From the IMG/VR virus record IMGVR_UViG_3300035701_000003: a stretch of 64,000 nucleotides of DNA; one strand, given 5' to 3'. Shown here piece after piece: positions 16,258-33,762 of the stretch. This stretch comes from a virus. The notes beneath the pieces were generated by a model. It worked only from the letters and a program-made list of their open reading frames with translations. It searched no databases and was not told the origin of the DNA. Made by a program: the position numbers and the translations under genes. Position 1 is the first letter of the stretch. Each line of letters begins with the position of its first letter.

Positions 16258-16523
16258 TACCCAATTATAAAACCTTACGCTGCAGCGGGACTATTTTAAA
16301 AGATAATTCTAAGGAAATAGTCAAAAAATGGACCTTTGTTCCTACTGATGATATTACCGTTAAAGAATTATCTTTATTGTTACCTTTTCTTCTTACTTCT
16401 GGAAGACCCGGTTTAATACTTTCTGATTTGGAATATTTTGAAAACACTAACTTACTAAGACACTTTATTATTGAAGACGTTTCTAATATATTACAGGTCA
16501 CTCCTAACATTACTATAAACTAA
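16254..16523 (+). CDS. Hypothetical protein
   Basis: 89-aa ORF with ATGA overlap to the upstream gene. Confidence 0.5.
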   Translation: MIPNYKTLRCSGTILKDNSKEIVKKWTFVPTDDITVKELSLLLPFLLTSGRPGLILSDLEYFENTNLLRHFIIEDVSNILQVTPNITIN

Positions 16524-16536
16524 TTAAATAAATTAT

Positions 16537-18447: not shown

Positions 18448-19028
18448 CTATTATGAAAGTAACTAAATTATTTGAAATAACCTTTGATGAACCAGATCCT
18501 GATTGGCTTTGTGCCGATAATTTAAATATTGTTTTGAAAGATGCATTAGAACCTCTTACCTTTGAAATAAGAGAACTTACTAATAGAGAACAATATTTGG
18601 AAAAGTTTAATATAGGTTCTGTTTTTGATCTTCGGTCTGAAGAAATTACAGTAGAAGAAATAGGTTTAGATACCGGGATAGAAGAAAAGGAGGAAAAACT
18701 AACAGAAACTCCTATTATTCATAAACCTTTAATAAACGTGGCTGAGAAAAACGCGGTTTTACGCGCTGCTAAAGGTTCTGGGGAATCTATTTCTTCTAAA
18801 ATAAAATCAGTTATAAAAGGGGCTACCGATGTTAAGGATGTTCAAGATCTTTCTTCTGGGGAAGATATTATAGATCCTAAAAAATTAGTCGCTCATATAG
18901 CACCAGGTCCCTCCGGAAAAATTTGTGAAAAGCCTAAACGGCATAAAGAAAAGATACCCGGAGGTGGCGCTATTGAATTTTGTACTACTTGTGGTTTTCA
19001 ATACGTGGATACAGATTTACTGGAGTAA
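18444..19028 (+). CDS. Hypothetical protein with a C-terminal Cys/His cluster
   Basis: Acidic ORF ending C..K..H...FCTTCG; the true start may be ATG 18453. Confidence 0.5.
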   Translation: MTIMKVTKLFEITFDEPDPDWLCADNLNIVLKDALEPLTFEIRELTNREQYLEKFNIGSVFDLRSEEITVEEIGLDTGIEEKEEKLTETPIIHKPLINVAEKNAVLRAAKGSGESISSKIKSVIKGATDVKDVQDLSSGEDIIDPKKLVAHIAPGPSGKICEKPKRHKEKIPGGGAIEFCTTCGFQYVDTDLLE

Positions 19029-19033
19029 GGGAA

Positions 19034-19975
19034 ATGCCTAATTCTATAATAGTACATGCGGTACCCGTTAATAAAGATGTATGTGGAGGCATTAAGGTTC
19101 ATTATCAAATGTCCATGATAGAAAAAGAATTGGGATATTCTTCTTTTATTGTTTATAAGGAAGATGAGGTTCCTTCTATTAAATGGTTTGAACACAGCTG
19201 TAATGAATACTCCTTACAACATTTTAAGAGTTATTTAGAGAAAGAAGAGAAAGAAGTTTTTCTTTTAATAGGATGGGAAGACCCATCTTCTCTATATATT
19301 TTACCCGCCAAGAATAAGGTAGCTTACATTCAAGGACACGTTTTCTTCAGAGAAAATGCCGCCTATAGTAATGCTAAGTTGTGGTATAACAGTGAATTTG
19401 TGATGAGAACTTGTAAATATAAAGGGGAAGTCGTCCGCCCTTATTTAGCTTCTTATTTTTTTAATACCGATAGAGACGCTTGGAGTTATAATAAAGATAA
19501 ATATATTTTACTAGTACAAGAACGAAAAGACGGAAGAAAGGAATGGGAAAAAGTAGCTCGACAACTATCTAAAGAGGTTTTAGAGAAATTAGATGTTATA
19601 ATATGGCCGAATTCTAACGAGAAAGAATTTAGGGATGCCTTGGCGAGAGCCGACATATTTTTTACTCATTCTTTTCCCGAAGGGTTTGGGCTACCACCAT
19701 TAGAGGCCATGGCCTTAGGCGCTCTTGTAGTGGGATATACTGGTGGTGGCGGAGAAGATTTTATGAGAGACCGTGAGAATTGTTTTATAGCAAAAGATGG
19801 CGTTAACTGCGAAGTAGCAGAACATATAACAAATATAGTATTGCATAACTATCTTTTTTTACCAAGTGTAATAGCTAATGCCCATGAAACTTCTTCTTTC
19901 TATAGTAAAGAGGCGACCCTAAATATATTACGAAAAATACTTAAGGAATATGAAAATGGAAGTGAAACAGTTTAA
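19034..19975 (+). CDS. Glycosyltransferase, GT4-like
   Basis: CGGIKVHY; ARADIFFTHSFPEGFGLPPLEAMALGALVVGYTGGGG; start moved to ATG 19034 after AAGGG. Confidence 0.85.
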   Translation: MPNSIIVHAVPVNKDVCGGIKVHYQMSMIEKELGYSSFIVYKEDEVPSIKWFEHSCNEYSLQHFKSYLEKEEKEVFLLIGWEDPSSLYILPAKNKVAYIQGHVFFRENAAYSNAKLWYNSEFVMRTCKYKGEVVRPYLASYFFNTDRDAWSYNKDKYILLVQERKDGRKEWEKVARQLSKEVLEKLDVIIWPNSNEKEFRDALARADIFFTHSFPEGFGLPPLEAMALGALVVGYTGGGGEDFMRDRENCFIAKDGVNCEVAEHITNIVLHNYLFLPSVIANAHETSSFYSKEATLNILRKILKEYENGSETV

Positions 19976-20477
19976 AGACAGCGAAGAAGGTCCTAAAGGT
20001 ATAACAGAACAAACTACAGAAGGCGTAACTGGTTCTACAAGTATACAAGGACATCTGCTAATTATAGATAGTGTTAAAGAAAAGTTTTGTCCAAAATGTG
20101 GTAATTATTACCGTGATGATTTTATGATTATGTGCCCTCATTGTAATATGTCTTTGAACTTTACCGAGAGTTATAAAGTAGAAAGACAATGTTCAAAGTG
20201 TGACTATGTTGTACAAGCCCCCCCTTCCTATTTTATAAAAGATCCTACCCTTTCTATTTGTCCTTATTGTAAAGAAGGTCGCTTGGAAGTAAAAGAAATA
20301 TACAGAGAAGCTCCTAGTTTTTCTATAGATGGGAAATTTAATGGAGCTAAACGCGGAAAAATGATAAGGGAAAAGAACGAGCAATTAAAAAAGAAACACG
20401 CGGGGTACTCTTACGAAACTCCTAAATCAATAAGTGAGAGAACCCTTGAAAAATATAAAAAAAGAAAAGAACAATGA
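19950..20477 (+). CDS. Double zinc-ribbon protein (FmdB-like C-terminal half)
   Basis: CPKC, CPHC, CSKC and CPYC pairs; YKVERQCSKC...CPYCKEGRLE. Confidence 0.6.
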   Translation: MKMEVKQFKDSEEGPKGITEQTTEGVTGSTSIQGHLLIIDSVKEKFCPKCGNYYRDDFMIMCPHCNMSLNFTESYKVERQCSKCDYVVQAPPSYFIKDPTLSICPYCKEGRLEVKEIYREAPSFSIDGKFNGAKRGKMIREKNEQLKKKHAGYSYETPKSISERTLEKYKKRKEQ

Positions 20478-20935
20478 CTTGGGTATTTGGTGATATTTGG
20501 ATTTATTGGAAGTTAGGTAGCGCTATAGTTATCCCGACTAACGCTGGTTGGAAATCTGATGGTACTAATGTTATGGGGGCTGGATTGGCTAAACAGGCAG
20601 CTGCTCAATTTTCAGATTTAACTTTACGTTATGGTAGAAACTGTAAAGAAAAAAGTCCTTATCAATACTATAAGGACTTAAGATTAATTTTAGTTCCTTC
20701 TAAACTTCTTAACGAGGAAAAACCTTATTTAAGTTGGCAGGGGGATTCTGATATTAATGTTGTTAAGGAATCTTTGATTTGGTTAAATACTAACGCTGAT
20801 TCTTTCGAAAGCGATAAGGTATATGTACCTTTATTAGGAGCCGGTAACGGTCATTTGGATGATGATGTAATTAAAAAAATTATGAAAGAACATTTAAAAC
20901 ATCCTAAATTTTTTGGAGTACTGTGGAATGAATAA
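20474..20935 (+). CDS. Macro domain protein (TARG1/DarG-like ADP-ribose hydrolase)
   Basis: GDIW...IVIPTN...VMGAGLAKQ...PSK...W...VYVPLLGAGNGHL. Confidence 0.75.
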   Translation: MTWVFGDIWIYWKLGSAIVIPTNAGWKSDGTNVMGAGLAKQAAAQFSDLTLRYGRNCKEKSPYQYYKDLRLILVPSKLLNEEKPYLSWQGDSDINVVKESLIWLNTNADSFESDKVYVPLLGAGNGHLDDDVIKKIMKEHLKHPKFFGVLWNE

Positions 20936-22553
20936 TTTGCTTGGTATATATTGCTTTATAAGAAACGGACTGAAATTTGATTATCCATTTATTGAGTCTA
21001 TAGAATCAGCCGTTCCTATAGCTAATCAAATTGTTATAAATGAATGCGATTCCGAAGACGATACTTTAAATAAACTTTTAGAACTAAAAGAGAAATATCC
21101 TGAAAAAATTAAAATAATAAGGGATAATTGGGTAACGCATCATTCTCAATTATGCGCGCGGGGTAATCTTTGCATTCCTTATCTTACTACTCAGTGGCAT
21201 TGGCAATTACAGGCCGACGAGGTTTTACATGAAAAAGATTATGATTTAATTCTTAAGACTTTAACTGATACTCCTGATAGTATAGATGCTTATAAACCTT
21301 ATTACTATCATTTTATGGCTAATTATGAAACAGAATTCAATTTTATGTACGTTAAAGCCGCGCGTATAGCCCGCAAGAATACCGGTTGGTGGCTTGTTGG
21401 GGACGCTGCGGAAATAGCAGGAGGAGATCCTAATAGACTTGCTGATTTTCCTGAGGCTATAAAAGTATTTCATTACGGTAAAGTAAAAGATGGTAAAACA
21501 GGTTGGCAGAAAGAATGGGATTTTACTAATTTGTATAAGGATATAGGATTTCCTGATCCTAAAATGAAAGAAATGGAAGTAAAATTTGGTGAGCAATATT
21601 GTGATTATATTTATGTATTTGAAGGAGCCATCGAAAGAGGAGAAGTAAGGCATTATACTGGCACTCATCCTAAAGTGATGGAAGAGAGAATAAAGAACTT
21701 TAAAATGGGAGGCTATGAACAATTTATATCTCGTTTCAAGGAGTCTTTGGATTTGAAAAACTTAAAGGATACCAAATTACAAGATTCTAAAAAAGAACTG
21801 AAAAGAGAGGAAGAACTTACCGAAAACGACAAAAATAGAATTTACGAATGCAGAATAGGGGGAAAAAATATAGATTCTATGGAAAATGTTACTTTACGTA
21901 TGAAACATGATTGGAATAAAAGAGCTCTTAAAGATGCACCCTTCTATATTACAGGTTCCCCTAACATTTCCCCAGAATGGCTTCGACACTCCGGTAAGAT
22001 AGATTTTGATTTACATTTTCTACCGCGTTTTCTTCAACTTTATTCCAAAGAGAAATTTAGACTACCAACTATATTAGAGATAGGTTGTGGCATAGGCAGG
22101 ATGTCTGAATATATAGCAAGTTATTGTGACACGCTAATAGCTGCGGATATTAGTGCAGAGTTTTTAGAAGTGGCAAAACTTCGTCTAGCAGAATCTCTTA
22201 TAAACAATGTTACCTGCTTGGAATTAAATGGGTATTCTCTTGAGGGAATTTCTGATAATTCAATAGATCTCGCATTTGAATATATAGTGTTCCAACATAT
22301 AGGAAGTTTTGAAATTATAGTTTCTTATTTGAAAGAGATTGGTAGAGTACTGAAGAGCGGCGGGTACTTTATAATGCACGCTCGAGCCAATGATTTTGCT
22401 GCGGATAACTCTCTTAATATGGATAACACTTTTCATGGGTGTAACGTTACTTATACTATGATGATAGATACTATTAAGGAAACAGGAAATCTTGAGATAA
22501 TAGAACATAACATCTCTAATAATGATTATTGGGGAATAATAAAAAAGAAATAG
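20928..22553 (+). CDS. GT2 glycosyltransferase fused to a class I SAM methyltransferase
   Basis: IESIESAVPIANQIVINECDSED...LQADE...VFHYG; C-terminal ILEIGCGIGRMSE...AADISAEFL...VLKSGG. Confidence 0.85.
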   Translation: MNNLLGIYCFIRNGLKFDYPFIESIESAVPIANQIVINECDSEDDTLNKLLELKEKYPEKIKIIRDNWVTHHSQLCARGNLCIPYLTTQWHWQLQADEVLHEKDYDLILKTLTDTPDSIDAYKPYYYHFMANYETEFNFMYVKAARIARKNTGWWLVGDAAEIAGGDPNRLADFPEAIKVFHYGKVKDGKTGWQKEWDFTNLYKDIGFPDPKMKEMEVKFGEQYCDYIYVFEGAIERGEVRHYTGTHPKVMEERIKNFKMGGYEQFISRFKESLDLKNLKDTKLQDSKKELKREEELTENDKNRIYECRIGGKNIDSMENVTLRMKHDWNKRALKDAPFYITGSPNISPEWLRHSGKIDFDLHFLPRFLQLYSKEKFRLPTILEIGCGIGRMSEYIASYCDTLIAADISAEFLEVAKLRLAESLINNVTCLELNGYSLEGISDNSIDLAFEYIVFQHIGSFEIIVSYLKEIGRVLKSGGYFIMHARANDFAADNSLNMDNTFHGCNVTYTMMIDTIKETGNLEIIEHNISNNDYWGIIKKK

Positions 22554-22564
22554 GAGAAAAAGAT

Positions 22565-22948
22565 ATGCATCTTAGAAACATAATATTATATGTAGCGGGT
22601 CCTTATAGTAGTGATAGTGTGGATGGTGTTACAGTTAATATAAAAAAAGCTGCTGAGATATCACAACATCTTTGGGATGAAGGCTTTACTGTTATTTGCC
22701 CCCACACTAACACAGCCCACTTTACACACGATAAAACTTCTTATGAGGATTACATAGAAGGGTGTTTGTGTATGGTAGCTAGATGTGATGGGGTGGTTTT
22801 AACGAATACTTGGAGCGAATCCGAGGGAGCTCGTAGAGAGAAAGAAAGAGCAGATCTTCTTAACATTCCTACCTTTAATTTAAATACTATTACTTTTGAT
22901 ACTATCAAAGGATATTTTGATAATAAGTTGAAAATACAAAAGGAATAG
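22565..22948 (+). CDS. DUF4406 / nucleoside 2-deoxyribosyltransferase-like protein
   Basis: LYVAGPYS...ICPHTN...CDGVVL...WSESEGARRE. Confidence 0.7.
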   Translation: MHLRNIILYVAGPYSSDSVDGVTVNIKKAAEISQHLWDEGFTVICPHTNTAHFTHDKTSYEDYIEGCLCMVARCDGVVLTNTWSESEGARREKERADLLNIPTFNLNTITFDTIKGYFDNKLKIQKE

Positions 22949-22950
22949 TA

Positions 22951-23457
22951 ATGGGACCTTTAGATAATAGCAAAGAATCAAATATTGTTACTAGAGTGAT
23001 TCTAGAGATAAATTATTTAGAAAAATTTATGCTCGAGTCTAATTCTATAGAAGGAGAAGATTATTTGAATCCTAGTGATATAATAGTAGCAAAAGAAGTA
23101 ATTGAAAAAGGAATTAAAAATCTAAAACATCTCCAAAAATTACATAGTATTATTACAAAACATTTACAGGTTTCCTGGGGAGGTAAATGGAGGACGGTTA
23201 ACGTTAAAGTTGGTTCTTATAAACCTCCCTTATGGCAGGAAGTCCCTGAGTTGATGTTAATGTATTGGAGTAATTTTGATCATATGGACTCTTGGCAGGC
23301 TCACAATGAATTTGAACATATACACCCTTTCCAAGATTTTAATGGTAGAATGGGTAGACTTATTTGGTTATCCAAAGCAATTAAGGAAGGTTATAACTTT
23401 AGATATCCTTTTTTACAGAAATACTATTATCAAACCCTTAACAATTTTAGGAGATAG
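22951..23457 (+). CDS. Fic-domain protein
   Basis: HNEFEHIHPFQDFNGRMGR, against the canonical HPFxDGNGRxxR. Confidence 0.8.
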   Translation: MGPLDNSKESNIVTRVILEINYLEKFMLESNSIEGEDYLNPSDIIVAKEVIEKGIKNLKHLQKLHSIITKHLQVSWGGKWRTVNVKVGSYKPPLWQEVPELMLMYWSNFDHMDSWQAHNEFEHIHPFQDFNGRMGRLIWLSKAIKEGYNFRYPFLQKYYYQTLNNFRR

Positions 23458-23461
23458 ATTT

Positions 23462-24196
23462 ATGACACTTTCTGTTTGTACTATTTGCCAGGACGAAGAA
23501 GAGCCGATCCGATGGTATCTCGAATCTTGCAAACACACATATTCTATTTTAAAGGAAAATTTGCCCGAAATAGTTTTAGTAGATGGCGGTAGCAAGGATA
23601 ACACTGTAGATATTATTAAGGAATACCAAAAAGAGATTCCTATTAAATTACTAGAAAGACCTTTTGATTGCCCCCGAGATCAAATGAATTTTGGATTGGA
23701 AAACTGTACTGGTGATTTTATATTTACACCTGATGCTGATATGACATGGACTATTAATTTCCCCGATGTATTTTTAACTAATTATTTTAATTCTAGTAGT
23801 TACTGGGATTTTCTTATTCTCTATACTGGTAAAGATGCCTATCATTATTTTTATAAATGGCCTCTTGGACCTAATATAAGAATGTTTCGGAAAGGTATTC
23901 GATGGGCTCAACATCGTGCATATCATGTTCTTTTAGAAGGACAAAAACAAGGTCTTCCCGTTTGTAGAGACGTTATAATTTTTGAAAACAGCTGTAGAAT
24001 AAAAAATGACGCCGCCTTGATGAATAGAGGTGAAAGACGTCAACTACATAACCCAGGAATGGTGGAGGAGGGGGGAGGGCCAGGCCCCTCTAACAGATTT
24101 TATAGCGCGGCGCACGCCCCCGATAGTGAATTACGTCTTATAAGTGAATATAGTAAAGCTATATCTGATAAAATATTACCAAGTACTAACGGATAA
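23462..24196 (+). CDS. Glycosyltransferase, GT2
   Basis: LSVCTICQDEE...LVDGGSKDNT...IFTPDADM; start set at ATG 23462. Confidence 0.85.
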   Translation: MTLSVCTICQDEEEPIRWYLESCKHTYSILKENLPEIVLVDGGSKDNTVDIIKEYQKEIPIKLLERPFDCPRDQMNFGLENCTGDFIFTPDADMTWTINFPDVFLTNYFNSSSYWDFLILYTGKDAYHYFYKWPLGPNIRMFRKGIRWAQHRAYHVLLEGQKQGLPVCRDVIIFENSCRIKNDAALMNRGERRQLHNPGMVEEGGGPGPSNRFYSAAHAPDSELRLISEYSKAISDKILPSTNG

Positions 24197-24200
24197 AGCT

Positions 24201-25487
24201 TTGAAGTACAGATCTGTTCTTTTAACTTCTATGAGAAGCCCTTATTTAGATGATGATCGTGCTTATCCTCCTCTGGGACTTCTTTATTTGAAATCATATT
24301 TGAATCAGTATAATATACAAGTAACTCTTGATGATGATTTTGATTTTTCTGATATTACAAAATATGAAAAGTATGATTTATTTGGGGTATCTGTTATGAC
24401 TCCTCAAAGGGAAAAGTCTCTTGAGTTTTTAGATTTTTGTAAGGCTACTTATGAAGGGGATGTTGTAATAGGAGGACCTCACGCTCTTCATTATAAAGAA
24501 GATGTTGTAAGAGAGAATTGGGATTATATAGTGTGTGGTGATGGTTTTAGGTCCTTACTACAAATAATAGAAGGAGTTAGTGATAAAAGAGTGTATTACG
24601 ATATTTTAACTAAAGAGCAGTGGCGGAATCTCCCTAGACCCGACCGCTCTAGCGACCAAGCTATTGAGGTGCTTTCTAATTATACTTATATGTTGGGGGG
24701 TGTAAAATCTACTACTATGCTTACTGCTATTGGTTGCCCCGAAAGATGTACCTTCTGTGAGGACGCCCAAACTGCGGTACGTTGGAGTAGTTTAGAGAAT
24801 ATTAAAGGAGAATTAGACGATATTGTAAATTTAGGTTACGGCGGTGTTTATATTTTTGACGACCTCTTTGCCATAGCTCTTAAAATGGTTAGACCTATTT
24901 GTTATGAAATACAGAGAAGAGGTTTAATTTATAGATGTAATGGACAAGCACGTTATTTTAATGAAGAATTTGCGAAACTGCTATCTAGTACAGGCTGTCA
25001 CGAAATAGCGTTTGGAGTCGAGTCTGGTTCGCAAGTAATATTAAATAATATTAATAAGAGGACTACCGTAGAGCAGAATTATAAATTTGTAGAACTTTGT
25101 AAAAAATATCATATTAAATGTAAAGCATTTTTAATGATTGGGTTGCCAGGAGAAACTTACGAAACTATTGCATTAACAGAGAAGTTTATTAAAGAGGCTG
25201 AACTCGATGACTTTCAATTATCAATTTACTATCCTTATAAGGGAACTTTTATAAGAGATACTATTGATGCCCGAGGTAAAGGAGCCGGTATATTTTTTGA
25301 AGGAGAAGGACTTGGGGCGTATGGTACCGGGGGAGGAAATACAGAATCTGTAGTTAGCACCGATGAACTTACTTCCGAACAATTATTACAAGAGAGAGAT
25401 AGACTTGTAAATACATACCGGCCAACTAGTCATAAACAGAAATGGTCGTTTTTCGACGAACATATCTATAGAAGAGGAAGTATATGA
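24201..25487 (+). CDS. Cobalamin-binding (class B) radical SAM enzyme, probable C-methyltransferase
   Basis: YPPLGLLYL, VIGGPHA, GDG (B12 domain); GCPERCTFC, FDDLF, FGVESGSQ, FLMIGLPGET. The start is uncertain (TTG 24201 after GGA, or GTG 24144). Confidence 0.85.
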   Translation: MKYRSVLLTSMRSPYLDDDRAYPPLGLLYLKSYLNQYNIQVTLDDDFDFSDITKYEKYDLFGVSVMTPQREKSLEFLDFCKATYEGDVVIGGPHALHYKEDVVRENWDYIVCGDGFRSLLQIIEGVSDKRVYYDILTKEQWRNLPRPDRSSDQAIEVLSNYTYMLGGVKSTTMLTAIGCPERCTFCEDAQTAVRWSSLENIKGELDDIVNLGYGGVYIFDDLFAIALKMVRPICYEIQRRGLIYRCNGQARYFNEEFAKLLSSTGCHEIAFGVESGSQVILNNINKRTTVEQNYKFVELCKKYHIKCKAFLMIGLPGETYETIALTEKFIKEAELDDFQLSIYYPYKGTFIRDTIDARGKGAGIFFEGEGLGAYGTGGGNTESVVSTDELTSEQLLQERDRLVNTYRPTSHKQKWSFFDEHIYRRGSI

Positions 25488-26170
25488 TACGAATATCTAT
25501 ACTACACCCTTCTTTTAATAGAGTTCAAATGTCCTATGATTGTTTTTGTGATTGGGTTAATGATGCTAAAAATCCTTCTGAAATAGAATATTTAATAGGG
25601 TTAGATAATAACGAACCTGAAAAACTTTTATATGAAAATAAATTTCAAGAAGCTAATAAAAAAGTAGGAAACTTTTTAATAGATATGGGAAATTCTACTA
25701 GCGCCATTCAAGCCGTGAATAGACTAGCTACTAAAATTTCCGATACAAGTGAGCTACTTATCGAAGTATGTGATGATATTGGTAGTTTCTCCGGATGGGA
25801 TACCGCTTTATTCGAAACGCTAAAAGGTATAGATAATTTTAAGGATCCTAAGATGATTGGCACGCATGATGGTTTGCGAGATTACGGGGTAGTGTTTACA
25901 CAACCTATAATGAACAGAGCTTGTTATAACAAACTCGGGTATATAATTTATATAGAATATACTTCTATGTTTGCTGATAACGACTTTACGGAAATTGCTA
26001 GAAGAACCGGTTGGTTAATAAACGCTCCTCATATTTTATTCCGACATAAACATTATTCTATCGGGTTTAATAAAATGGATGCTACTTATTCTAAAAGAAA
26101 CAATACTGAAGAGTGGGATTATAATCGTCAAGTTTATTTAAAAAGAGAAAAAGAAAATTTCGGGTTATGA
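25484..26170 (+). CDS. Glycosyltransferase, GT2-like
   Basis: ISILHPS...EYLIGLDN...VCDD...YTSMFADNDF...FRHKH. Confidence 0.75.
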   Translation: MIRISILHPSFNRVQMSYDCFCDWVNDAKNPSEIEYLIGLDNNEPEKLLYENKFQEANKKVGNFLIDMGNSTSAIQAVNRLATKISDTSELLIEVCDDIGSFSGWDTALFETLKGIDNFKDPKMIGTHDGLRDYGVVFTQPIMNRACYNKLGYIIYIEYTSMFADNDFTEIARRTGWLINAPHILFRHKHYSIGFNKMDATYSKRNNTEEWDYNRQVYLKREKENFGL

Positions 26171-27210
26171 ATATACTAATTACAGGAATTACTGGATTTG
26201 TAGGTTCCCACATGGCGGATTATCTCCTACTTAACACTGACGCTGATATATACGCGATGAGACGCTGGCGAAGCGACGACCGCAATATAAAACATTTATA
26301 TGGAAATTCTCGAGTTACCTTTATAGAATCCGATTTAATGGATAGAGGCAGTATAGCTTCCATTATTTCAGAAGCCGAACCTGATTATGTATTTCATTTC
26401 GCTGCCCAAAGTTACCCCATGAGTAGTTTTATTACTCCTATCTATACCCTAAACATTAACGTGGTAGGCACAACTAACTTATTAGAAGAGTTAAGAATAG
26501 CTAGGGATAGAGGTATATGCGATCCTATCATAATATCTGTAAGTAGTTCCGAAGTATACGGTAATCCGAGACTAGATGAAATTCCTATAAAGGAGACTAA
26601 TCCTATAAGAGCCGCTAACCCTTATTCTATAAGTAAGGTAGCTCATGATCTTCTTTCTCAGATGTATCATCAAGCTTATGGTTTAAAAATTATTATAACT
26701 AGAATGTTTTCGCATGAGGGAGCTAGGCGCGGTAGAATGTTTGCTATTTCTAATTTTGCTTATCAAATAGTACAGCATGAAAAGGAATTCCGCAGTAAAT
26801 ATACTACTATGAATAATAAAAAAGTAACTTTAGTTCACTGGCCCCCCCCTGTCCATAGTTTAAAAATAAAAGTAGGTAATCTTAATTCCGTTAGAACATA
26901 TTCTCATATTGACGATGCTGTAAGGGCCTATTGGATTTGTGCTATCGATGGAGAAGTAGGTAACGTGTATAATATAGGAGGGGATTACACATGTACTGTA
27001 GGCGATGTATTGGATAACTTGTTACATAAGAGTGTACTTCCTTTTGAATCTTTCTTTACCGAAATAGACCCTGGAAGAATAAGACTAACTGATATTACTT
27101 TACAGATACCAGATTGCGCTAAATTTAAACATTTAACGGGTTGGAAACCTAAAAAATCATTAGATGATATTACTACTGATTTGTTAAATTACTGGAGGGA
27201 AATGTTATGA
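26167..27210 (+). CDS. gmd: GDP-mannose 4,6-dehydratase-like SDR
   Basis: LITGITGFVGSH, FHFAAQS, SSSEVYG, NPYSISK, FSHEGARRG, GNLNSVR. Confidence 0.75.
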   Translation: MNILITGITGFVGSHMADYLLLNTDADIYAMRRWRSDDRNIKHLYGNSRVTFIESDLMDRGSIASIISEAEPDYVFHFAAQSYPMSSFITPIYTLNINVVGTTNLLEELRIARDRGICDPIIISVSSSEVYGNPRLDEIPIKETNPIRAANPYSISKVAHDLLSQMYHQAYGLKIIITRMFSHEGARRGRMFAISNFAYQIVQHEKEFRSKYTTMNNKKVTLVHWPPPVHSLKIKVGNLNSVRTYSHIDDAVRAYWICAIDGEVGNVYNIGGDYTCTVGDVLDNLLHKSVLPFESFFTEIDPGRIRLTDITLQIPDCAKFKHLTGWKPKKSLDDITTDLLNYWREML

Positions 27211-28229
27211 GTTTTTACAAAAATAAAAAAGTTTTAGTTACCGGGGGTACAGGATTAATTGGTATACCTCTCGTTATAAAACTTGTGCGGGCCGGGGCTA
27301 ATGTATACGTAACTAGCGCTGATTCTTTTGAAAGATTTCATGTGATGAAAGAATTTATTACTGAGTTTGAATACGTTCAAAATTTCGTATCAGCTAACTT
27401 AGAAAACTACGATTCTTGCTACTCCACCGCTGCTGGTATAGATTATGTATTTCAGTTAGCTGGTTCTAAAGGAGCGGCTAGTATTGGAAAAACAAAAGCT
27501 GCTACTTTTCTTACTTCTCATCTTTTTATCAATCTTAATATGTTAAAAGCCGCGAGAGAGTGTGGCGTGAAAAAATATTTATTAACTAGTACTACTGGCA
27601 TTTACCCTCCAGGGAGCCCCTATATAGAATATACTTCATGGGAAGCTCCAGCAGGAGAAAGCGATAAGTATTCTTCTTGGGCAAAGAGGATATCCGAATT
27701 AGCAGCAGAAGCCTTCATGATAGAGCATGATTGGCCGGGTATAGTTATAGTTCGTCCCGGTAGCATTTATGGTCCTTGGGATAACTTCGATAAAGATACT
27801 TCCATGGTAGTTGGTTCTTTAATAGGTAAATTTGTTAGGAACGAAGAATCCCCTGTAAAAGTTTATGGGGATGGTAGTTCTATAAGAGATTTTACTTATA
27901 CCAACGATATTGCAGATGGAATGCTTCTAGCTTTGGAGAAGTCAGGGAATTGTGAAGTATTTAATTTAAGTAGTGGTAAAGAATATCATGTAAAGGAGCT
28001 GGTTGAATTAATTTATAAATATACTTCCGAAGATAGTAAATCCAGAGAATATATATGGACTGGACCTACTTCATTTAAGATGGATAAGAGAGTTTTAGAT
28101 ATTACAAAAGCACAGACCTTGTTAGGGTATAAACCCTCCGTAGGGTTGGAGGAAGGTATAAAAAAGACCGTTCGGTGGTACAGGCAAAATAAAGATATAG
28201 CAAATATTCGTTATAATGCATTTAAATAA
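27207..28229 (+). CDS. NAD-dependent sugar epimerase/reductase (Fcl/GME-like)
   Basis: VLVTGGTGLIG, YSSWAK, RPGSIYGPWDNF, GDGSSIRDF. Confidence 0.8.
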   Translation: MSFYKNKKVLVTGGTGLIGIPLVIKLVRAGANVYVTSADSFERFHVMKEFITEFEYVQNFVSANLENYDSCYSTAAGIDYVFQLAGSKGAASIGKTKAATFLTSHLFINLNMLKAARECGVKKYLLTSTTGIYPPGSPYIEYTSWEAPAGESDKYSSWAKRISELAAEAFMIEHDWPGIVIVRPGSIYGPWDNFDKDTSMVVGSLIGKFVRNEESPVKVYGDGSSIRDFTYTNDIADGMLLALEKSGNCEVFNLSSGKEYHVKELVELIYKYTSEDSKSREYIWTGPTSFKMDKRVLDITKAQTLLGYKPSVGLEEGIKKTVRWYRQNKDIANIRYNAFK

Positions 28230-28241
28230 GGAGAAATAGAA

Positions 28242-29198
28242 ATGAACTTTTTTGAGGGAAAGCGCGTAGTAGTTACAGGAGCCGCTGGTCTTATAGGACA
28301 TGAAACTATTAGACAACTGCTCGATTTAGGAGCTATTGTTTTAGCTGTTATTTTTCAAAAAAGGGTACTGAAAGTTCCGCCTCACAAGAATTTAAATACT
28401 TTTTTTGGGGATCTTCGAGACTACCCTACTTGTCTGGGGGCACTGTATGGAGCGGATATAGTTATTGATGCTGCTGCTGTCACGGGAGGAGCGAAAAAGC
28501 AAAAACTTAATCAACTTACCTTTGCTCGAGATAATACAGTAATACATGTAAATGTTATTACAGCCGCTGTTGAACAAGGCGTTTCTCGCTTTGGTTTTAT
28601 AGGAAGTTCTACTATGTATCCTGTGAGAGAAGTGGTTGTGGAGAGTGAGGGATTTGACGAAGATCCTTGGGAAGGTTATATGGGGGTTGGTTGGACTAAA
28701 CGTTATCTTGAAAAATTATGTATGTTATTTAATAATACTACTGATACTAAATTTGCTATTGCACGTACTACAGCTGTTTATGGCCCTCATGATGATTTTA
28801 ATTTAGAAACATGCCATGTAATTCCAGCTTTGGTTAATAAAATAGCCCATAGACAAGACCCTTTGGAGATATGGGGCGCTGGTGATGAAATACGTAACTT
28901 TATTTATGTAGAAGATTTCGTCAATGGTCTTTTAGAAATGATTAAGTATAAAACAGACGCGGATCCTGTTAACATAGCTAGTGTAGAAAAGTCTACTGTT
29001 AAAGATATAATAAAATATGGTATAGAATATATGGAGTATAAACCTGAACTTAATTTTGACTTATCTAAACCTACAATGCTTCCTAAAAGAATAGTAGATG
29101 TATATAAAGTGTATAAACTTTTGCAGTGGGAAGCAAAAACACCTTTGAAAGAAGGTATAGAAAAAACAATAAAATGGTATCAGGAGAATTATTTATGA
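28242..29198 (+). CDS. GDP-fucose synthase / ColC-like epimerase-reductase
   Basis: VVTGAAGLIG, YGPHDDFNLETCHVIPAL, IWGAGDEIRNFIYVED. The catalytic YxxxK appears as VGWTK, which is atypical. Confidence 0.75.
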   Translation: MNFFEGKRVVVTGAAGLIGHETIRQLLDLGAIVLAVIFQKRVLKVPPHKNLNTFFGDLRDYPTCLGALYGADIVIDAAAVTGGAKKQKLNQLTFARDNTVIHVNVITAAVEQGVSRFGFIGSSTMYPVREVVVESEGFDEDPWEGYMGVGWTKRYLEKLCMLFNNTTDTKFAIARTTAVYGPHDDFNLETCHVIPALVNKIAHRQDPLEIWGAGDEIRNFIYVEDFVNGLLEMIKYKTDADPVNIASVEKSTVKDIIKYGIEYMEYKPELNFDLSKPTMLPKRIVDVYKVYKLLQWEAKTPLKEGIEKTIKWYQENYL

Positions 29199-30145
29199 AG
29201 AAGAAAACCCTAAATGATTTTCAAACTTGGAAATTAAAAAGAGAACAACCTGTTGCTTGGATTACTGCTTATGATTTACCCCTTGCCCAAACCGCAGAGA
29301 AAGCCGAAATAGATATGATATTAGTGGGCGATAGCGGGGGTATGGTTCAATTAGGTTACGATAGTACCCATCCAGTTACTATGGATGAAATGATTATGAT
29401 GTCAAGAGCTGTGAGAAGGGGAGCTCCCAATACTTTTGTTATTGGGGATATGCCACAAGGATCTTACGAAGTGAGTGAAGAAGAAGCTGTAAGAAATGCT
29501 TTAAGATTTATAAAGGAGGCTGGTTGTGACGCTGTTAAATGCGAAGGTGGGGAAAGAGTATCTGATAAAGTACAGGCAATGGTTAACGCAGGTATTGTAG
29601 TTTTTGGTCATTTAGGGTTGACTCCTCAAAGTTCTGAAACTTTTGGAGGGTATAGAGTCCAAGGAAAAACAATTAAAAGTTTCGAAAGTATATTACAGGA
29701 TGCAGAAGCACTAGCCCAAGTAGGTATTTCAGCTTTACTGTTAGAAGCTATGCCCGCTACTCCTTCTCAGCAAATTGCTACGCTATTAAAAATACCAGTG
29801 TATGGAATAGGGGCGGGTCCTTTAGTAGACGGCCAATTAGTAATAGTTCACGACCTTTTAGGCTTTTATCAATCCTTCAGACCTTGGTTTGCTAAATGCT
29901 ATATACCAGATGTTATTCAAGACTTTATATATCATCTATCAGCATTAACTAATATAAAAGAAGCGGGGCGTAAAGAGAGAACCGATGGTTTCCTAGTATT
30001 AGCTCAAATGGCTATTGAACAATATATTTTAGAAGTTAAAACTAGAAAATTTCCTAGTGAAGAATATTGTTACCCTATTAAAGAAGAAGAATTAAATGAA
30101 TTAAAACAATCACAATATTGGAAAGAGACTTATGAAAGTAGCTGA
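29195..30145 (+). CDS. panB: Ketopantoate hydroxymethyltransferase homologue
   Basis: ITAYD, ILVGDS, IGDMP, VKCEG, GHLGLTPQS, LLEA, GIGAG...DGQ; the start at 29195 overlaps the upstream stop (ATGA). Confidence 0.9.
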   Translation: MKKKTLNDFQTWKLKREQPVAWITAYDLPLAQTAEKAEIDMILVGDSGGMVQLGYDSTHPVTMDEMIMMSRAVRRGAPNTFVIGDMPQGSYEVSEEEAVRNALRFIKEAGCDAVKCEGGERVSDKVQAMVNAGIVVFGHLGLTPQSSETFGGYRVQGKTIKSFESILQDAEALAQVGISALLLEAMPATPSQQIATLLKIPVYGIGAGPLVDGQLVIVHDLLGFYQSFRPWFAKCYIPDVIQDFIYHLSALTNIKEAGRKERTDGFLVLAQMAIEQYILEVKTRKFPSEEYCYPIKEEELNELKQSQYWKETYESS

Positions 30146-31976
30146 TTTTGTAATAAAATATCTTGAAGATTTAGGTATAAAAGAAGTATTTTTAGTATAT
30201 GGTTCTGCGAACGGGGATTTGGTGGATGCTTTTACTAGGATGAAAAAAATTAAATATGTATCTGTTATGCACGAACAGGCTGGTGGTTTCATGGCGGAAG
30301 GTTATGCTAGGGTCTCAAGAAATTTTGGGGTAGCTATAGCTACCAGCGGGCCAGGTGGTATGAATTTAATTACTCCCGCTGGAAATTGTTACTACGATTC
30401 TATACCTTGTCTTTTTATTACAGGACAAATAAGCACTCAATATTTAAGACCTTCCGATGAAGTGAGGCAAGTTGGATTTCAAGAATCAGATATGGTTGGA
30501 ATGATGAAGCCAGTAACTAAGTATTCTGTTATGGTTACCGAACCGAGATATATTAAATATGAACTTCAAAAAGCTTTACATTTAATGAGAGACGGAAGAC
30601 CTGGTCCAGTTCATTTAGACTTACCTCTTGATGTTCAAAAAGCGGAAATTGGCGAGTATAAATTAGTACCTTACCATATTCCTGAATTACATTCCGAAGG
30701 GCCTAAAGAATATATTGATAAGTTATATGAGTTGGCTAGTGATTTGGAACATGCTAAGAGACCAGTTTTATTAATAGGAGGAGGTTTTAGAAAAGACTCA
30801 AAACCTTTATTAGATTTGGGAAGATTATTAAAAATACCCTTAATCCCCACTTGGAATGCTTTGGACGTAGTAACTAATGATTATGAATATTACGGAGGAA
30901 ATGTTGGTACTTATGGAGGTAAGGGTAGAAATTTTGCTATACAAAATTGTGATTTACTAGTAGCGTTTGGTAGTAGAATTTCTGGAAGGATTACTGGAGG
31001 TAACCCTGCTTCCTTTGTAAGAGGGGCTAAGAAATGGACTATTGATATTGATTCTAATTTAACACAACCCCGGTTACAGCAGTTACCCTTTGATTACTAT
31101 ATAAATAACGACGCTTTTAGCAGCGCTTCTGATTTATTATCTATATTTAAGTCTGGTGGTAAACTTGTTGTTATTCCCGATTACTCCGAGTGGTGGAATA
31201 AGGTTAAAGAATGGAGAGATAAATATGATCCTGTAAAAGAAGAATACTATAAAAAAGATTATCCTATTAATCCTTACGTATTTGCAAGACTATTATCCAA
31301 AATACTTCCAAGTAACTCTATTATAGTTACTGATTGTGGAGGAAATGTGGTAGTGATGAATCAGGCTTTTGAAGTAAAACAAGGACAGAGATTTTTTAGT
31401 AATAATGGTAATTCTCCTATGGGTTTCTCTTTTTCGGGGGCTATAGGAGCCTGGTTTGCCTCTGATAAGAAACAACCCGTTATTTGTGTTATAGGAGATG
31501 GGGGTATGAATATGAATATTCAAGAATTACAGACTATAAAAACATATGGTGTAAATATAAAAGTCTTTATAATGAACAACCATATATATGGGATTACTAA
31601 AGCCTTTCAAGAAACAAATTTTCAAGGAAGAGCTGAAGCCTGCGGTCCTAAAGGTTACAACCCACCCGACTTTATTAAAATAGCCGAAGCTTATGGTATA
31701 AACTCTGTACGTATAAATAGTTCTAAGGAAATGGTTTCAAGAATACAGTTAGAAGTATTGGAAAAACCTCATACTGTTATTTGTGATATTGATTGCCATG
31801 AGTGGCATACTTACGAGCCCCGCGTAATCGGTTGGAACACGCCCATCGAAGACATGTATCCTTATTTAAAAAGAGAAGAATTTCTATCTAATATGATTAT
31901 TCCTCCCTTTGAAGGGTATGACTATAAAAATCCAAAGATGCCTGATATTATTCAGACTAATCAGGAGCAACCATGA
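30132..31976 (+). CDS. Thiamine-diphosphate enzyme, acetolactate synthase/YerE-like
   Basis: HEQAGGFMAEGY, TSGPGGMN, GQIST...RQVGFQE, GRPGPVHLDLP, GDGGMNMNIQELQT...NN. Confidence 0.85.
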   Translation: MKVADFVIKYLEDLGIKEVFLVYGSANGDLVDAFTRMKKIKYVSVMHEQAGGFMAEGYARVSRNFGVAIATSGPGGMNLITPAGNCYYDSIPCLFITGQISTQYLRPSDEVRQVGFQESDMVGMMKPVTKYSVMVTEPRYIKYELQKALHLMRDGRPGPVHLDLPLDVQKAEIGEYKLVPYHIPELHSEGPKEYIDKLYELASDLEHAKRPVLLIGGGFRKDSKPLLDLGRLLKIPLIPTWNALDVVTNDYEYYGGNVGTYGGKGRNFAIQNCDLLVAFGSRISGRITGGNPASFVRGAKKWTIDIDSNLTQPRLQQLPFDYYINNDAFSSASDLLSIFKSGGKLVVIPDYSEWWNKVKEWRDKYDPVKEEYYKKDYPINPYVFARLLSKILPSNSIIVTDCGGNVVVMNQAFEVKQGQRFFSNNGNSPMGFSFSGAIGAWFASDKKQPVICVIGDGGMNMNIQELQTIKTYGVNIKVFIMNNHIYGITKAFQETNFQGRAEACGPKGYNPPDFIKIAEAYGINSVRINSSKEMVSRIQLEVLEKPHTVICDIDCHEWHTYEPRVIGWNTPIEDMYPYLKREEFLSNMIIPPFEGYDYKNPKMPDIIQTNQEQP

Positions 31977-33145
31977 AATATAAACTAGCTCAAAATACTA
32001 TTCCTAAAGAGGATATAGATAAACTTATAGAGTGGTTAAAAACTTATCCTCCTCTTACTATGGCTGCGGGTACCTTAACTAAACAATTTGAAGAAGAATG
32101 GAGTAAAACTATAGGTGTTAGATACTCTGTTTTTTGTAATTCGGGTTCCTCTGCTAATCTACTTGCTTATAGTGCTATTATTAATACTTCGTCGCCATCT
32201 TTTTATAAAAAGCATGTTGTTTTGTGCTCTGCCGGCTGGTCTACTACTTTATCCCCTCTTTTGGAAAGGCAAATTCCATGCGTGTTATGTGATGCTGATA
32301 GAGATACTTTTGGGATTGATATGAAATCTCTAAAGTATCTTTTGGATACTATGGATATTTCTTTAGTAGTATTAGTTCATACTCTGGGAGTCCCGAATAG
32401 GATGAATGAGATTTTAGGACTTAAGGAACTATATGGATTTCTTTTAATGGAGGATAGCTGCCCAGCAGTGGGTTCTAAGTATAATGACCAATATACGGGA
32501 ACTTTTGGGGATATTAGTACTTTTTCTTTTTACTACGGGCATCAACTTTCTACTATAGAAGGGGGTATGGTTTGTACTAACGACGAATCTTTATATCACG
32601 CTCTTTTAACCTTAAGAAGTCATGGTTGGGGAAAGAATTTACCTTTAAATATAAGGCACGAAGCTGAATTACAAAATAGAATAGATGAACACCATTCTGA
32701 TTTTACTTTTTATTCTGATGGTTACAATCTCCGCCCTACAGAAATAAACGCTTTTTTAGGTTTAGAACAGATAAAGAGGTTGCCATATATTACGAATGTT
32801 CGTAACTTTAATTTTCAGCATTATAGAAATCTATTAAAGAATAAATTTATAGTTCAAAATCCTCCTATGCACTCTACTGTTTCTTGTATAACTTTTCCTT
32901 TTATAACTAATGGCGCCGCGGAGGCTAGAAAAGTTTTTGAAGTATTAAAGAAAGAGGAAATAGAGACACGTCCTATTTCTGGTGGGAGTTTAGGATTACA
33001 ACCTTTTTGGTTTGCTTATAATGGTGATTATAGTAGTTTTTCTTTTGCGGACAAATTACATAAATTTGGCTTTGTATTACCGTGTCACCCCGAAATGAGA
33101 CTAGAGGATATAGATTATATTTGCGATTTGTTGTTGAATATATAA
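31973..33145 (+). CDS. PMP-dependent NDP-4-keto-6-deoxysugar 3-dehydratase (ColD-like, DegT fold)
   Basis: NSGSSANLL; SFYYGHQLSTIEGG has His where aminotransferases have Lys; LRSHGW; no Cys-rich Fe-S motif as in E1/DdhC. Confidence 0.75.
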   Translation: MKYKLAQNTIPKEDIDKLIEWLKTYPPLTMAAGTLTKQFEEEWSKTIGVRYSVFCNSGSSANLLAYSAIINTSSPSFYKKHVVLCSAGWSTTLSPLLERQIPCVLCDADRDTFGIDMKSLKYLLDTMDISLVVLVHTLGVPNRMNEILGLKELYGFLLMEDSCPAVGSKYNDQYTGTFGDISTFSFYYGHQLSTIEGGMVCTNDESLYHALLTLRSHGWGKNLPLNIRHEAELQNRIDEHHSDFTFYSDGYNLRPTEINAFLGLEQIKRLPYITNVRNFNFQHYRNLLKNKFIVQNPPMHSTVSCITFPFITNGAAEARKVFEVLKKEEIETRPISGGSLGLQPFWFAYNGDYSSFSFADKLHKFGFVLPCHPEMRLEDIDYICDLLLNI

Positions 33146-33157
33146 AAGGTATTAAGT

Positions 33158-33655
33158 ATGTTACAAGAAGCTATGGTGTCTAGTAAGACTGTGGAACACA
33201 TAACCCCCCAATTTTTCTTTAATCGTTTAGACAAAGAATTTCATTTTACCTTAGACCCCAGCGCTACTCATATTAATCATAAATGTGAAAAGTATTTTAC
33301 TATAAAAGAAAATGGTTTATTACAGGATTGGAGTAAAGATATTGTATTTATGAACCCCCCCTACGGAGGACATACTGGAGATTGGATTAAAAAAGCTTAT
33401 GAAGAAAGCCTTAAAGGAGCCGTAGTAGTGTGTTTAATAGCTGTAGGGACTAATAGGAGTTATTGGCACGATTATATTTTTCCATATGCTTCTCAAATAA
33501 GATGGTTAAGAGGTACTTTGAAATTTAGTGATATGAAGTCTACCGCTCCTTTTGCTTGTGTCGTAGTAGTTTTTAATAAGAGACTTTCTATCAATTATCA
33601 TTTTCAACATGTTTGGAATGTTTCTTCTAAGGATAAAAAAAGAAAGAGGAAATAG
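33158..33655 (+). CDS. dam: Phage-type DNA N6-adenine methyltransferase
   Basis: FTLDP...YFT..ENGLLQDW...FMNPPY...WIKKAY...SYWHDYI. Confidence 0.85.
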   Translation: MLQEAMVSSKTVEHITPQFFFNRLDKEFHFTLDPSATHINHKCEKYFTIKENGLLQDWSKDIVFMNPPYGGHTGDWIKKAYEESLKGAVVVCLIAVGTNRSYWHDYIFPYASQIRWLRGTLKFSDMKSTAPFACVVVVFNKRLSINYHFQHVWNVSSKDKKRKRK

Positions 33656-33762
33656 AGACACGTCCTATTTCTGGTGGGAGTTTAGGATTACAACCTTTTT
33701 GGTCTGCTTATAATGGTGATTATAGTAGTTTTTCTGAGGCTAAAAAAGTTTTTGAAGTATTA
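33639..33762 (+). repeat. Circularly permuted copy of 32921-33043 (internal part of the ColD-like gene)
   Basis: 33639-33735 matches 32947-33043 (97 nt, 1 mismatch); 33736-33762 matches 32921-32947 (27 nt, 1 mismatch). Confidence 0.9.

Follow-up and report, generated by a model that had tools for sequence, protein, structure and literature searches.

A phage glycan island with PanB and a YerE-like enzyme: a putative pathway to a C4 acyl-branched 3,6-dideoxy GDP-sugar

The stretch of DNA considered here, 64,000 nucleotides of the IMG/VR virus record IMGVR_UViG_3300035701_000003 (in the following: the window), is a section of a large tailed phage, which encodes baseplate wedge and tail sheath proteins, a ribonucleotide reductase, helicases and a family A polymerase, as well as a collagen-like protein and a 1203-residue multi-glycosyltransferase/methyltransferase/radical S-adenosylmethionine (SAM) protein. 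Its G+C content is about 33%, no transfer RNA genes were found in the 64-kb window, and homologues of its proteins are found on contigs whose length reaches about 177 kb. Between positions 13800 and 33145 all genes lie on the + strand, and nearly all of those that could be matched to a family are glycan-related. This glycan island ends in a cassette (26167-33145) of six + strand open reading frames (ORFs), in which a PanB-type and a thiamine diphosphate (ThDP)-dependent enzyme are encoded among sugar-nucleotide enzymes and which is examined here as a putative branched-sugar pathway. An original prediction, made from the sequence alone, had described the six genes as closely packed and mostly overlapping, and this was confirmed: the successive junctions are a 4-nucleotide overlap, a 12-nucleotide gap, a 4-nucleotide overlap (with the PanB start at ATG 29195), a 14-nucleotide overlap and a 4-nucleotide overlap. 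The Pfam families follow each other in the order GDP_Man_Dehyd/Epimerase, Epimerase, Epimerase, Pantoate_transf, TPP_enzyme N/M/C and DegT_DnrJ_EryC1. A scan of the island for promoters and terminators gave counts no higher than those in shuffled sequences and no convincing terminator inside the island. The features are collected in Table 1.

Table 1. Genes of the cassette, the three genes preceding it and the remaining glycan island, with the matches on which each assignment is based.
Feature	Position	Strand	Basis
SDR1, nucleoside diphosphate (NDP)-sugar 4,6-dehydratase, GDP-heptose dehydratase/Rmd clade	26167..27210	+	PF16363, 220 bits
SDR2, extended SDR, Y-x4-K (YSSWAK)	27207..28229	+	PF01370, 126 bits
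SDR3, Fcl/GME-like SDR, Y-x6-K (YMGVGWTK)	28242..29198	+	NF047922 Fcl, 142.6 bits, cut-off 500
PanB, 3-methyl-2-oxobutanoate hydroxymethyltransferase family, long form	29195..30145	+	PF02548, 303 bits
YerE-like ThDP (probably also flavin adenine dinucleotide) carboligase	30132..31976	+	three TPP_enzyme domains, PF02776, PF00205, PF02775
ColD-like NDP-4-keto-6-deoxyhexose 3-dehydratase, dependent on pyridoxamine 5'-phosphate (PMP)	31973..33145	+	PF01041, 202 bits
GT2 glycosyltransferase	23276..24196	+	PF00535, 59 bits
B12-binding radical SAM enzyme (class B, methyltransferase-like)	24144..25487	+	PF04055 and PF02310
Small glycosyltransferase-like protein	25484..26170	+	phrog_14945 'glycosyltransferase', E 5e-16
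Rest of glycan island: two GT4, GT2-GT4 fusion, GT4, Zn-ribbon protein, 546-residue class I methyltransferase-domain protein, DUF4406, Fic-domain protein	13800..23457	+	Pfam matches

The last gene of the cassette encodes a DegT-fold protein for which a ColD-like dehydratase function, with His at the catalytic Lys position, had been predicted. The His is confirmed, and the scores favour a ColD-like protein. Against solved structures the protein scores 203 bits with ColD (2gms) and 121 bits with E1 (3bcx), and its length of 390 residues is like that of ColD. In the HMMER alignment to 2gms the His of the GHQLSTIEGG stretch falls on ColD His188, the position that is altered in the variant entries 3b8x (Asn) and 2r0t (Lys). 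The top NCBIfam match of the protein is RfbH with 197.5 bits, far below the cut-off of 423, and, together with the much higher score of ColD in the PDB search, this led us to reject a pathway of the E1 type linked to cytidine diphosphate (CDP).

For the neighbouring ThDP enzyme, whose translation contains the catalytic Glu in an HEQ motif and the cofactor motif GDGGMNMN...NNH, the closest solved relatives are 5ahk (295 bits) and 8rph (265 bits), compared to at most 219 bits for entries of acetohydroxyacid synthase (AHAS). Moreover, it stays under every AHAS equivalog cut-off (363 bits on TIGR00118, cut-off 538.35). These scores uphold the label 'YerE-like' given to it in the original prediction and support a YerE-like enzyme rather than an AHAS. 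The RQVGFQE stretch named there is indeed present but non-diagnostic, as FQE is common to AHAS-type enzymes. In the alignment to 5ahk both proteins have a Phe in the FQE stretch near the C-terminus, a position at which AHAS has a conserved Trp that recognises the second keto acid. We take 5ahk to be PpYerE, which fits PpYerE being among the solved YerE-like structures. These structures are PpYerE and JanthE (PMC12247030), the latter corresponding to 8rph (PMC12188165), and the paper on JanthE engineering gives no transferable rule for donor specificity (PMC12188165).

PanB lies above both of its NCBIfam cut-offs (TIGR00222, 266.4 bits versus 207.55; NF001452, 299.5 bits versus 272) and scores 190 bits with the M. 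tuberculosis enzyme (1oy0). Its start is likely ATG 29195, because translation from GTG 29126 would add 23 residues that are missing in all homologues. The positions D45, S46, D84, K112, E114, H136 and E181 of E. coli PanB, which we take from the 1m3u work to be the Mg and substrate ligands and the catalytic base, are all invariant in the aligned window protein. An insert of 27 residues and a tail at the C-terminus make the protein a long form. Compared to the pantothenate enzymes (E. coli b0134; M. tuberculosis 1oy0), it thus has the same fold and the same catalytic and metal residues and differs by the insert, the tail and the lack of a panC, panD or panE partner. Compared to E. coli PanB it also differs by the replacement of Leu47, Phe87 and Met88 by Gly, Gln and Gly and by its constant placement within glycan loci. 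No homologues of panC, panD, panE, ilvC, ilvD, ilvE or ilvM were found in the 64-kb window, and panC, panE and ilvD were not found in four complete related phage genomes either.

The three remaining proteins are short-chain dehydrogenases/reductases (SDRs). SDR1, an extended SDR with S-x-E and YxxxK motifs, had been called Gmd, which is imprecise: with the gmd model TIGR01472 it reaches 118.9 bits at an equivalog cut-off of 415, and among solved structures it is closest to the 4,6-dehydratase of guanosine diphosphate (GDP)-D-glycero-D-manno-heptose (7us5, 218 bits), followed by the reductase Rmd (2pk3, 166 bits) and the true Gmd entries (about 90-103 bits). The motifs SSSEVYG and YSISK are common to SDR1 and 7us5. 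Judged from these similarities, SDR1 would be a 4,6-dehydratase of a GDP-sugar, which may be a hexose or a heptose. SDR2 has its best solved match in 4zrm (114 bits), with Tyr and Lys aligning across a one-residue insertion, and is a candidate side-chain ketoreductase or epimerase. The best matches of SDR3 are GDP-fucose synthase and GDP-mannose epimerase (GME). When aligned to E. coli Fcl (1bws) it shows Thr at the position of Cys109, whereas His179 is retained and the Tyr expected four residues ahead of the Lys is missing; its Y-x6-K motif is conserved in five homologues. SDR3 is a candidate epimerase and/or reductase. Hence, the earlier assignment of epimerisation and reduction to these two SDRs did not find support, given that the canonical YxxxK is missing in both (Y-x4-K, Y-x6-K) and that the epimerase Cys is replaced by Thr in SDR3. 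The same pair, with the motifs (Y/F)xxW(A/S)KR in the SDR2-type and YxGVG(W/N)xKR, along with Thr or Ser at the Fcl Cys109 site, in the SDR3-type proteins, is found in the loci L011, L017, L006 and L022 and co-occurs with ColD-like dehydratases. Overall, the nearest characterised relatives of four cassette enzymes all act on GDP-sugars. The preference for ColD over E1 and the resemblance of SDR1 to GDP-heptose dehydratase and Rmd and of SDR3 to GDP-fucose synthase and GDP-mannose epimerase agree with the GDP linkage that had been predicted.

To place these assignments in a genomic context, IMG/VR and species genomes were scanned with the ThDP enzyme, which gave 43 and 80 loci, respectively (123 ThDP loci). 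Wherever a DegT-fold gene lies within 10 kb of the ThDP gene, it is of the His type in 36 of 36 viral cases (the window counted) and in 59 of 61 cellular cases, i.e. in 95 of 97 taken together. The viral proteins comprise ColD-like, E1-like (PAHH, about 438 residues) and a third type. The case for an action of the ThDP family on 3,6-dideoxy-4-keto sugars, like that of YerE, rests most strongly on this linkage. PanB adjoins the ThDP gene in 26 of the 43 viral loci, on the upstream or the downstream side depending on the locus, and also in five 'genome' contigs that resemble binned phage DNA. On a tree of 60 ThDP enzymes (FastTree, support values local only) the PanB label has to change at least five times. 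In four related viral contigs (L040-L043) the ThDP gene, followed by that of PanB, is read as two ORFs of about 335 and 250 residues, which could reflect a conserved split, a frameshift or recoding.

Within 3.5 kb of the ThDP gene PanB is encoded in 31 of the 123 loci and a class I/II aminotransferase in 46, and no locus has both; in the close ThDP clade, loci that lack PanB usually have the aminotransferase. The aminotransferase loci are mostly chromosomal Nitrospira clusters, and loci of the two kinds can be sister taxa on the tree (L088/L095, L017/L020). Since both enzymes can deliver a 2-oxoacid, we read PanB and the aminotransferase as alternative donor suppliers for the ThDP enzyme; the aminotransferase could instead aminate the branch ketone. 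The long PanB is still 65-68% identical to that of the window in loci whose partner ThDP enzymes share only 29-35% identity with the window's, and such conservation of PanB beside changing partners is in keeping with a small-molecule substrate common to all rather than a context-specific sugar. A full CDP-type set is found in the bacterial capsule locus L127, which encodes Wza/Wzz, a nucleoside triphosphate (NTP)-transferase, a 4,6-dehydratase, an E1-type His DegT protein, PanB, the ThDP enzyme and an SDR.

The cassette does not travel alone. The whole block of GT2 glycosyltransferase, B12-radical SAM enzyme, small glycosyltransferase, three SDRs, PanB, ThDP enzyme and His-type DegT protein recurs in L011, L045 and L017 with 46-66% protein identity, and this recurrence points to more than a chance grouping of genes. 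The GT2 protein, encoded by the first gene of the block, has homologues of 54-56% identity at the same position in L011, L017 and L045, the radical SAM enzyme has homologues of 61% identity in L011 and L045, and the small glycosyltransferase-like protein, for which no Pfam match was obtained, is kept in L011, L045 and L017. Most close relatives have a B12-radical SAM gene no further than 3.5 kb from the ThDP gene; its product probably C-methylates the sugar or the side chain.

Starting from these family assignments, catalytic residues and gene linkages, we infer the substrates, the sequence of reactions, what SDR2 and SDR3 do and the final acceptor as follows. SDR1 would oxidise and dehydrate a GDP-sugar of the host, GDP-mannose or GDP-D-glycero-D-manno-heptose, to a GDP-4-keto-6-deoxy sugar, from which the ColD-like PMP enzyme would remove the 3-hydroxyl to yield a GDP-3,6-dideoxy-4-keto sugar. 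In parallel, PanB would use 5,10-methylene-tetrahydrofolate to hydroxymethylate a 2-oxoacid of the host, giving a 4-hydroxy-2-oxoacid. Ketopantoate, the product expected with the canonical substrate, is 4-hydroxy-3,3-dimethyl-2-oxobutanoate; from pyruvate, 4-hydroxy-2-oxobutanoate would result, a compound that a homoserine transaminase could also deliver. The ThDP enzyme would then decarboxylate the 4-hydroxy-2-oxoacid and add the acyl carbanion to the C4 ketone, so that a tertiary alcohol with a hydroxylated acyl branch is formed. Reduction of the branch carbonyl and/or epimerisation of the ring might fall to SDR2 and SDR3, C-methylation of the product may be due to the radical SAM enzyme, and the glycosyltransferases of the island would use the finished sugar. 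A virion protein is a plausible acceptor, because the island adjoins baseplate and collagen-like fibre genes.

We put the probability that the nine-gene block, i.e. the six cassette genes and the GT2, radical SAM and glycosyltransferase genes upstream, encodes a phage pathway to a C4 acyl-branched 3,6-dideoxy GDP-sugar with a PanB-supplied donor at roughly 55%. The sugar itself is the best reading because GDP-type relatives, a ColD-type dehydratase, a YerE-like enzyme and the linkage to His-type proteins coincide. Thus, the branched deoxysugar pathway of the original prediction is largely supported by comparison, with changes in the donor and in the details of the dehydratase. It had assumed an acetyl branch derived from pyruvate, as in yersiniose, and had assigned PanB no role; the comparative data favour a donor supplied by PanB and hence a branch that is probably longer and hydroxylated.

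The cassette also fits a scheme that has been published for acyl-branched sugars. According to Steitz et al. the clusters for erwiniose, caryophyllose and gastriose encode an aldolase beside a YerE-like enzyme, which leads to a gamma-hydroxy-2-oxoacid as donor (PMC9306805). ErwE accepts 4-hydroxy-2-oxobutanoate, -pentanoate and -hexanoate and refuses pyruvate, and a reductase then reduces the side chain (PMC9306805). The 'unifying scheme' comprises ErwI/ErwJ-ErwE-ErwF of Pectobacterium atrosepticum, MMAR_2331/2332 and MygI/MyGE/MygF (PMC9306805). Because PanB makes the same class of compounds, 4-hydroxy-2-oxoacids, it would hold the aldolase slot of this scheme on a GDP/ColD-type scaffold. Common to the window and these clusters are genes for an NDP-3,6-dideoxy-4-keto sugar, the YerE-like enzyme, an adjoining enzyme that forms C-C bonds (proposed here as donor-maker) and NAD(P)H-type SDRs. 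In contrast to them, the window has a PanB dependent on methylene-tetrahydrofolate in place of a pyruvate aldolase, is of the GDP/ColD type instead of the CDP/E1-E3 type, shows no clear YerF-type reductase and is carried by a phage. An HpcH/HpaI-like pyruvate aldolase was found near the ThDP gene in 0 of the 123 loci with a query set of just two HpcH-type sequences. A literature search on PanB or ketopantoate in connection with ThDP, branched sugars or phage auxiliary genes returned nothing relevant; a survey of YerE-like clusters by Krug et al. 2024, outside its scope, might mention PanB clusters.

Several observations weigh against the pathway proposed above, the support for which is comparative. 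Ketopantoate, with its quaternary carbon beside the carbanion, would be a bulkier donor than those reported for YerE-like enzymes in the literature examined. The residues next to the catalytic ones of PanB are altered (GDSGGM for GDSLGM and DMPQGSY for DLPFMAY of the E. coli enzyme), and its substrate may therefore be other than 2-oxoisovalerate. Due to the non-canonical Tyr/Lys spacing of SDR2 and SDR3 no clear catalyst is at hand for the expected YerF-type reduction, and the 285-residue reductase encoded after the ThDP gene in L127 has no BLAST-matching homologue in the window. Genes for a nucleotidyltransferase or for SIS/GmhA-like heptose enzymes were found in none of the four complete relatives, and PfkB is encoded only in the two more distant ones (G003, G004), not in the two closest (L011, L017); a GDP-sugar of the host, hexose or heptose, is therefore assumed. 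Furthermore, the mutual exclusivity of PanB and aminotransferase largely tracks lineage (phages versus Nitrospira) instead of independent events. Finally, two loci (L135, L137) encode an AMP-ligase, an acyl carrier protein (ACP) and LuxE/LuxC after the PanB-ThDP pair, along with Lys-type aminotransferases and no 3-dehydratase. What the pair supplies there seems to be acyl activation and not C4 branching of a sugar, which implies that a PanB-linked ThDP enzyme need not act on a sugar. In L137 the pair lies inside a NeuB/CMP-transferase (nonulosonic acid) locus.

Of the alternatives, one retains the branched sugar and differs in the origin of the branch. A ThDP enzyme acting as in yersiniose synthesis would add acetyl or propionyl from pyruvate or 2-oxobutyrate, and PanB would later hydroxymethylate the carbon beside the side-chain ketone or serve some other step. 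In principle the chemistry of PanB, enolisation beside a ketone followed by one-carbon transfer, could suit an acyl branch, the altered pocket of the window PanB would be in line with such a change of substrate, and the ThDP enzyme scores best with 5ahk, presumably PpYerE. Both YpYerE and PpYerE use pyruvate (PMC12247030). On the other hand, the residues that hold the Mg-chelated 2-oxo-carboxylate in E. coli PanB are all invariant, the close similarity of PanB proteins from loci with very different or no ThDP enzymes fits a common small substrate, and in the precedent clusters, where ErwE rejects pyruvate, the accessory C-C-forming enzyme acts before the ThDP step (PMC9306805). We consider this alternative rather unlikely.

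Equally improbable in our view is that the cassette makes two separate products, namely a plain colitose-type 3,6-dideoxy GDP-sugar by SDR1, the ColD-like enzyme and SDR3, and, by PanB and the ThDP enzyme, a free small molecule derived from ketopantoate through decarboxylation or condensation, which would be attached as a substituent and not as a C-C branch. Two observations favour such a division: the cultured cyanophage S-CAM7 encodes Gmd, Fcl, a His-type DegT protein and GT11 with neither a ThDP enzyme nor PanB, and PanB-ThDP pairs exist beside acyl-activating enzymes in loci that lack a 3-dehydratase. Against it stand SDR3, which has neither the canonical YxxxK nor the Fcl Cys109, whereas the Fcl of S-CAM7 keeps YAIAK, the absence of an acyltransferase, ATP-grasp protein, AMP-ligase or ACP among the annotated genes of the island, and the tie of the ThDP relatives to His-type dehydratases. 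Long PanB proteins of about 67% identity are encoded in polysaccharide loci with neither a ThDP enzyme nor keto-sugar genes on three Bacteroidota-like contigs from gut and other metagenomes (L124, L125, L134; one named Odoribacter splanchnicus), which probably build an unusual acyl substituent. Their neighbours are two HpcH/HpaI lyases, a MaoC hydratase and a hexapeptide acyltransferase, with ATP-grasp or Old-Yellow-Enzyme-like proteins and a DegT gene nearby.

That the genes are auxiliary metabolic genes, with an acetolactate synthase and PanB raising branched-chain amino-acid and pantothenate/coenzyme A synthesis of the host, as the Pfam and NCBIfam names and the homologue annotations 'acetolactate synthase' and '3-methyl-2-oxobutanoate hydroxymethyltransferase' would have it, is very improbable: the ThDP enzyme falls short of all AHAS cut-offs and has its best solved relatives among YerE-like enzymes, a regulatory subunit is missing, ilvC, ilvD, panC, panD and panE partners were found neither in the window nor in complete relatives, and each of the two genes shares an overlap with sugar-nucleotide genes within an island of glycosyltransferases. 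Ordinary AHAS/PanB metabolism was rejected on the cut-offs, the solved relatives and the missing ilv and pan partners. The 'pantothenate' and 'acetolactate synthase' genes are thus most likely glycan genes and not vitamin or amino-acid genes. A 2-aminoethylphosphonate pathway (phosphoenolpyruvate mutase, phosphonopyruvate decarboxylase and aminotransferase) had come into view through a weak PEP_mutase match of PanB (21 bits) and was rejected in light of the 303 bits for PanB, the full three-domain AHAS-like ThDP enzyme and the identity of the PLP enzyme as a His-type dehydratase.

Two characterised pathways invite comparison with the putative branched GDP-sugar pathway. Yersiniose A synthesis in Yersinia pseudotuberculosis (DdhA/B, E1/E3, YerE, YerF) likewise proceeds by 4,6-dehydration, PMP-dependent 3-deoxygenation by a His-type DegT enzyme and ThDP-dependent C4 branching, yet it is CDP-linked, relies on the Fe-S enzyme E1 and the reductase E3, takes pyruvate as donor and has no PanB. 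With GDP-L-colitose synthesis (Gmd, ColD, ColC) the window shares the GDP linkage, the His-type ColD dehydratase, an adjoining Fcl-like SDR and, in phages, the location beside tail genes. Here, in contrast, a ThDP carboligase and PanB are inserted, the 4,6-dehydratase is of the heptose-dehydratase/Rmd clade, and the Fcl-like SDR is without the canonical YxxxK and the epimerase Cys. In Synechococcus phage S-CAM7 (L139, KU686213.1, 164047-167901) genes for Gmd, an Fcl-like protein (YAIAK), a His-type DegT protein and GT11 precede a tail fibre gene by a few genes; the DegT protein is annotated as CDP-sugar 3-dehydrase or aminotransferase, and the annotation of the record does not name a colitose-type pathway. 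Genes for 3,6-dideoxy sugars have therefore already been annotated in phages, and the ThDP/PanB extension is the new part.

How unusual the combination is for a virus depends on the collection searched. The rarity supposed in the original prediction applies to deposited phage genomes, but not to uncultured viruses, among which the 43 IMG/VR loci carry a ThDP relative. A blastn search of the cassette against 50,697 phage records gave no match. In deposited phage records no close homologue of the ThDP protein was found, only ilvB-like genes of about 30% identity in records resembling host DNA, and PanB found matches of only 35-45%. A moderately similar panB is annotated in just one deposited 'phage' record, that of Microcystis phage MaAM05 (L138, MW495066.1, 263312-271443), where the gene lies beside panC and sufBCD in an ordinary, cellular-looking context.

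Outside the block, the pair of GT4 genes (GT4a/GT4b) recurs next to ThDP/PanB modules in 13 viral loci. Genes for a DUF4406 protein (22529-22948) and a Fic/DOC-domain protein (22951-23457) lie in the middle of the glycosyltransferase island. Downstream of the cassette a 234-residue protein with sigma-70 regions 2 and 4 is encoded (34160-34864), homologues of which follow the DegT gene in L011 and L017. A 97-nucleotide direct repeat of 99% identity (32947-33043, within the 3' part of the ColD-like gene, and 33639-33735, at the end of dam) brackets dam (33158-33655). In L011 the DegT gene is directly followed by the sigma-factor-like gene, with neither dam nor a 142-residue ORF in between. As the repeat flanks dam and dam is missing at this position in L011, dam looks like an insertion that has duplicated part of its target. 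Among the cellular loci, the chromosomal one of Candidatus Nitrospira defluvii (L069, FP929003.1, 2266498-2288330) encodes a PilZ/YcgR-like protein, a ColD-like His-type DegT protein, an SDR, a GHMP kinase and an NTP-transferase, followed by a class I/II aminotransferase, a B12-radical SAM enzyme, a ThDP enzyme 57% identical to that of the window, a second B12-radical SAM enzyme and an 1800-residue multi-glycosyltransferase/methyltransferase/tetratricopeptide repeat (TPR) protein. This layout is repeated in dozens of Nitrospira genomes and looks like an undescribed branched-sugar glycosylation island.

In a wider and more tentative reading, PanB and the class I/II aminotransferase would serve one clade of YerE-like enzymes as exchangeable modules of donor supply, with ketopantoate or another hydroxymethylated 2-oxoacid as the donor in the present phage. 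Abundant aquatic phages would then carry a new class of sugar on their virions, namely a 3,6-dideoxy hexose or heptose of GDP origin whose C4 bears a C3-C5 side chain that is hydroxylated and possibly gem-dimethyl, and 'panB' and 'ilvB' genes counted as metabolic in viromes would be glycan genes.

If the proposed pathway holds true, acyl-branched sugars would have a new donor route in which one-carbon transfer by PanB takes the place of an aldol reaction, and the logic of their synthesis would be extended to a GDP/ColD-type scaffold and to viruses as producers. New ThDP and PanB catalysts would become available to produce tertiary alcohols, and where the side chains of branched sugars come from could be tested directly by means of four or five soluble enzymes. 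Two gene families that, in viral metagenomes, are routinely taken for genes of vitamin and amino-acid metabolism would have to be given another functional label, and widespread uncultured phages would carry an undescribed sugar on their surface.

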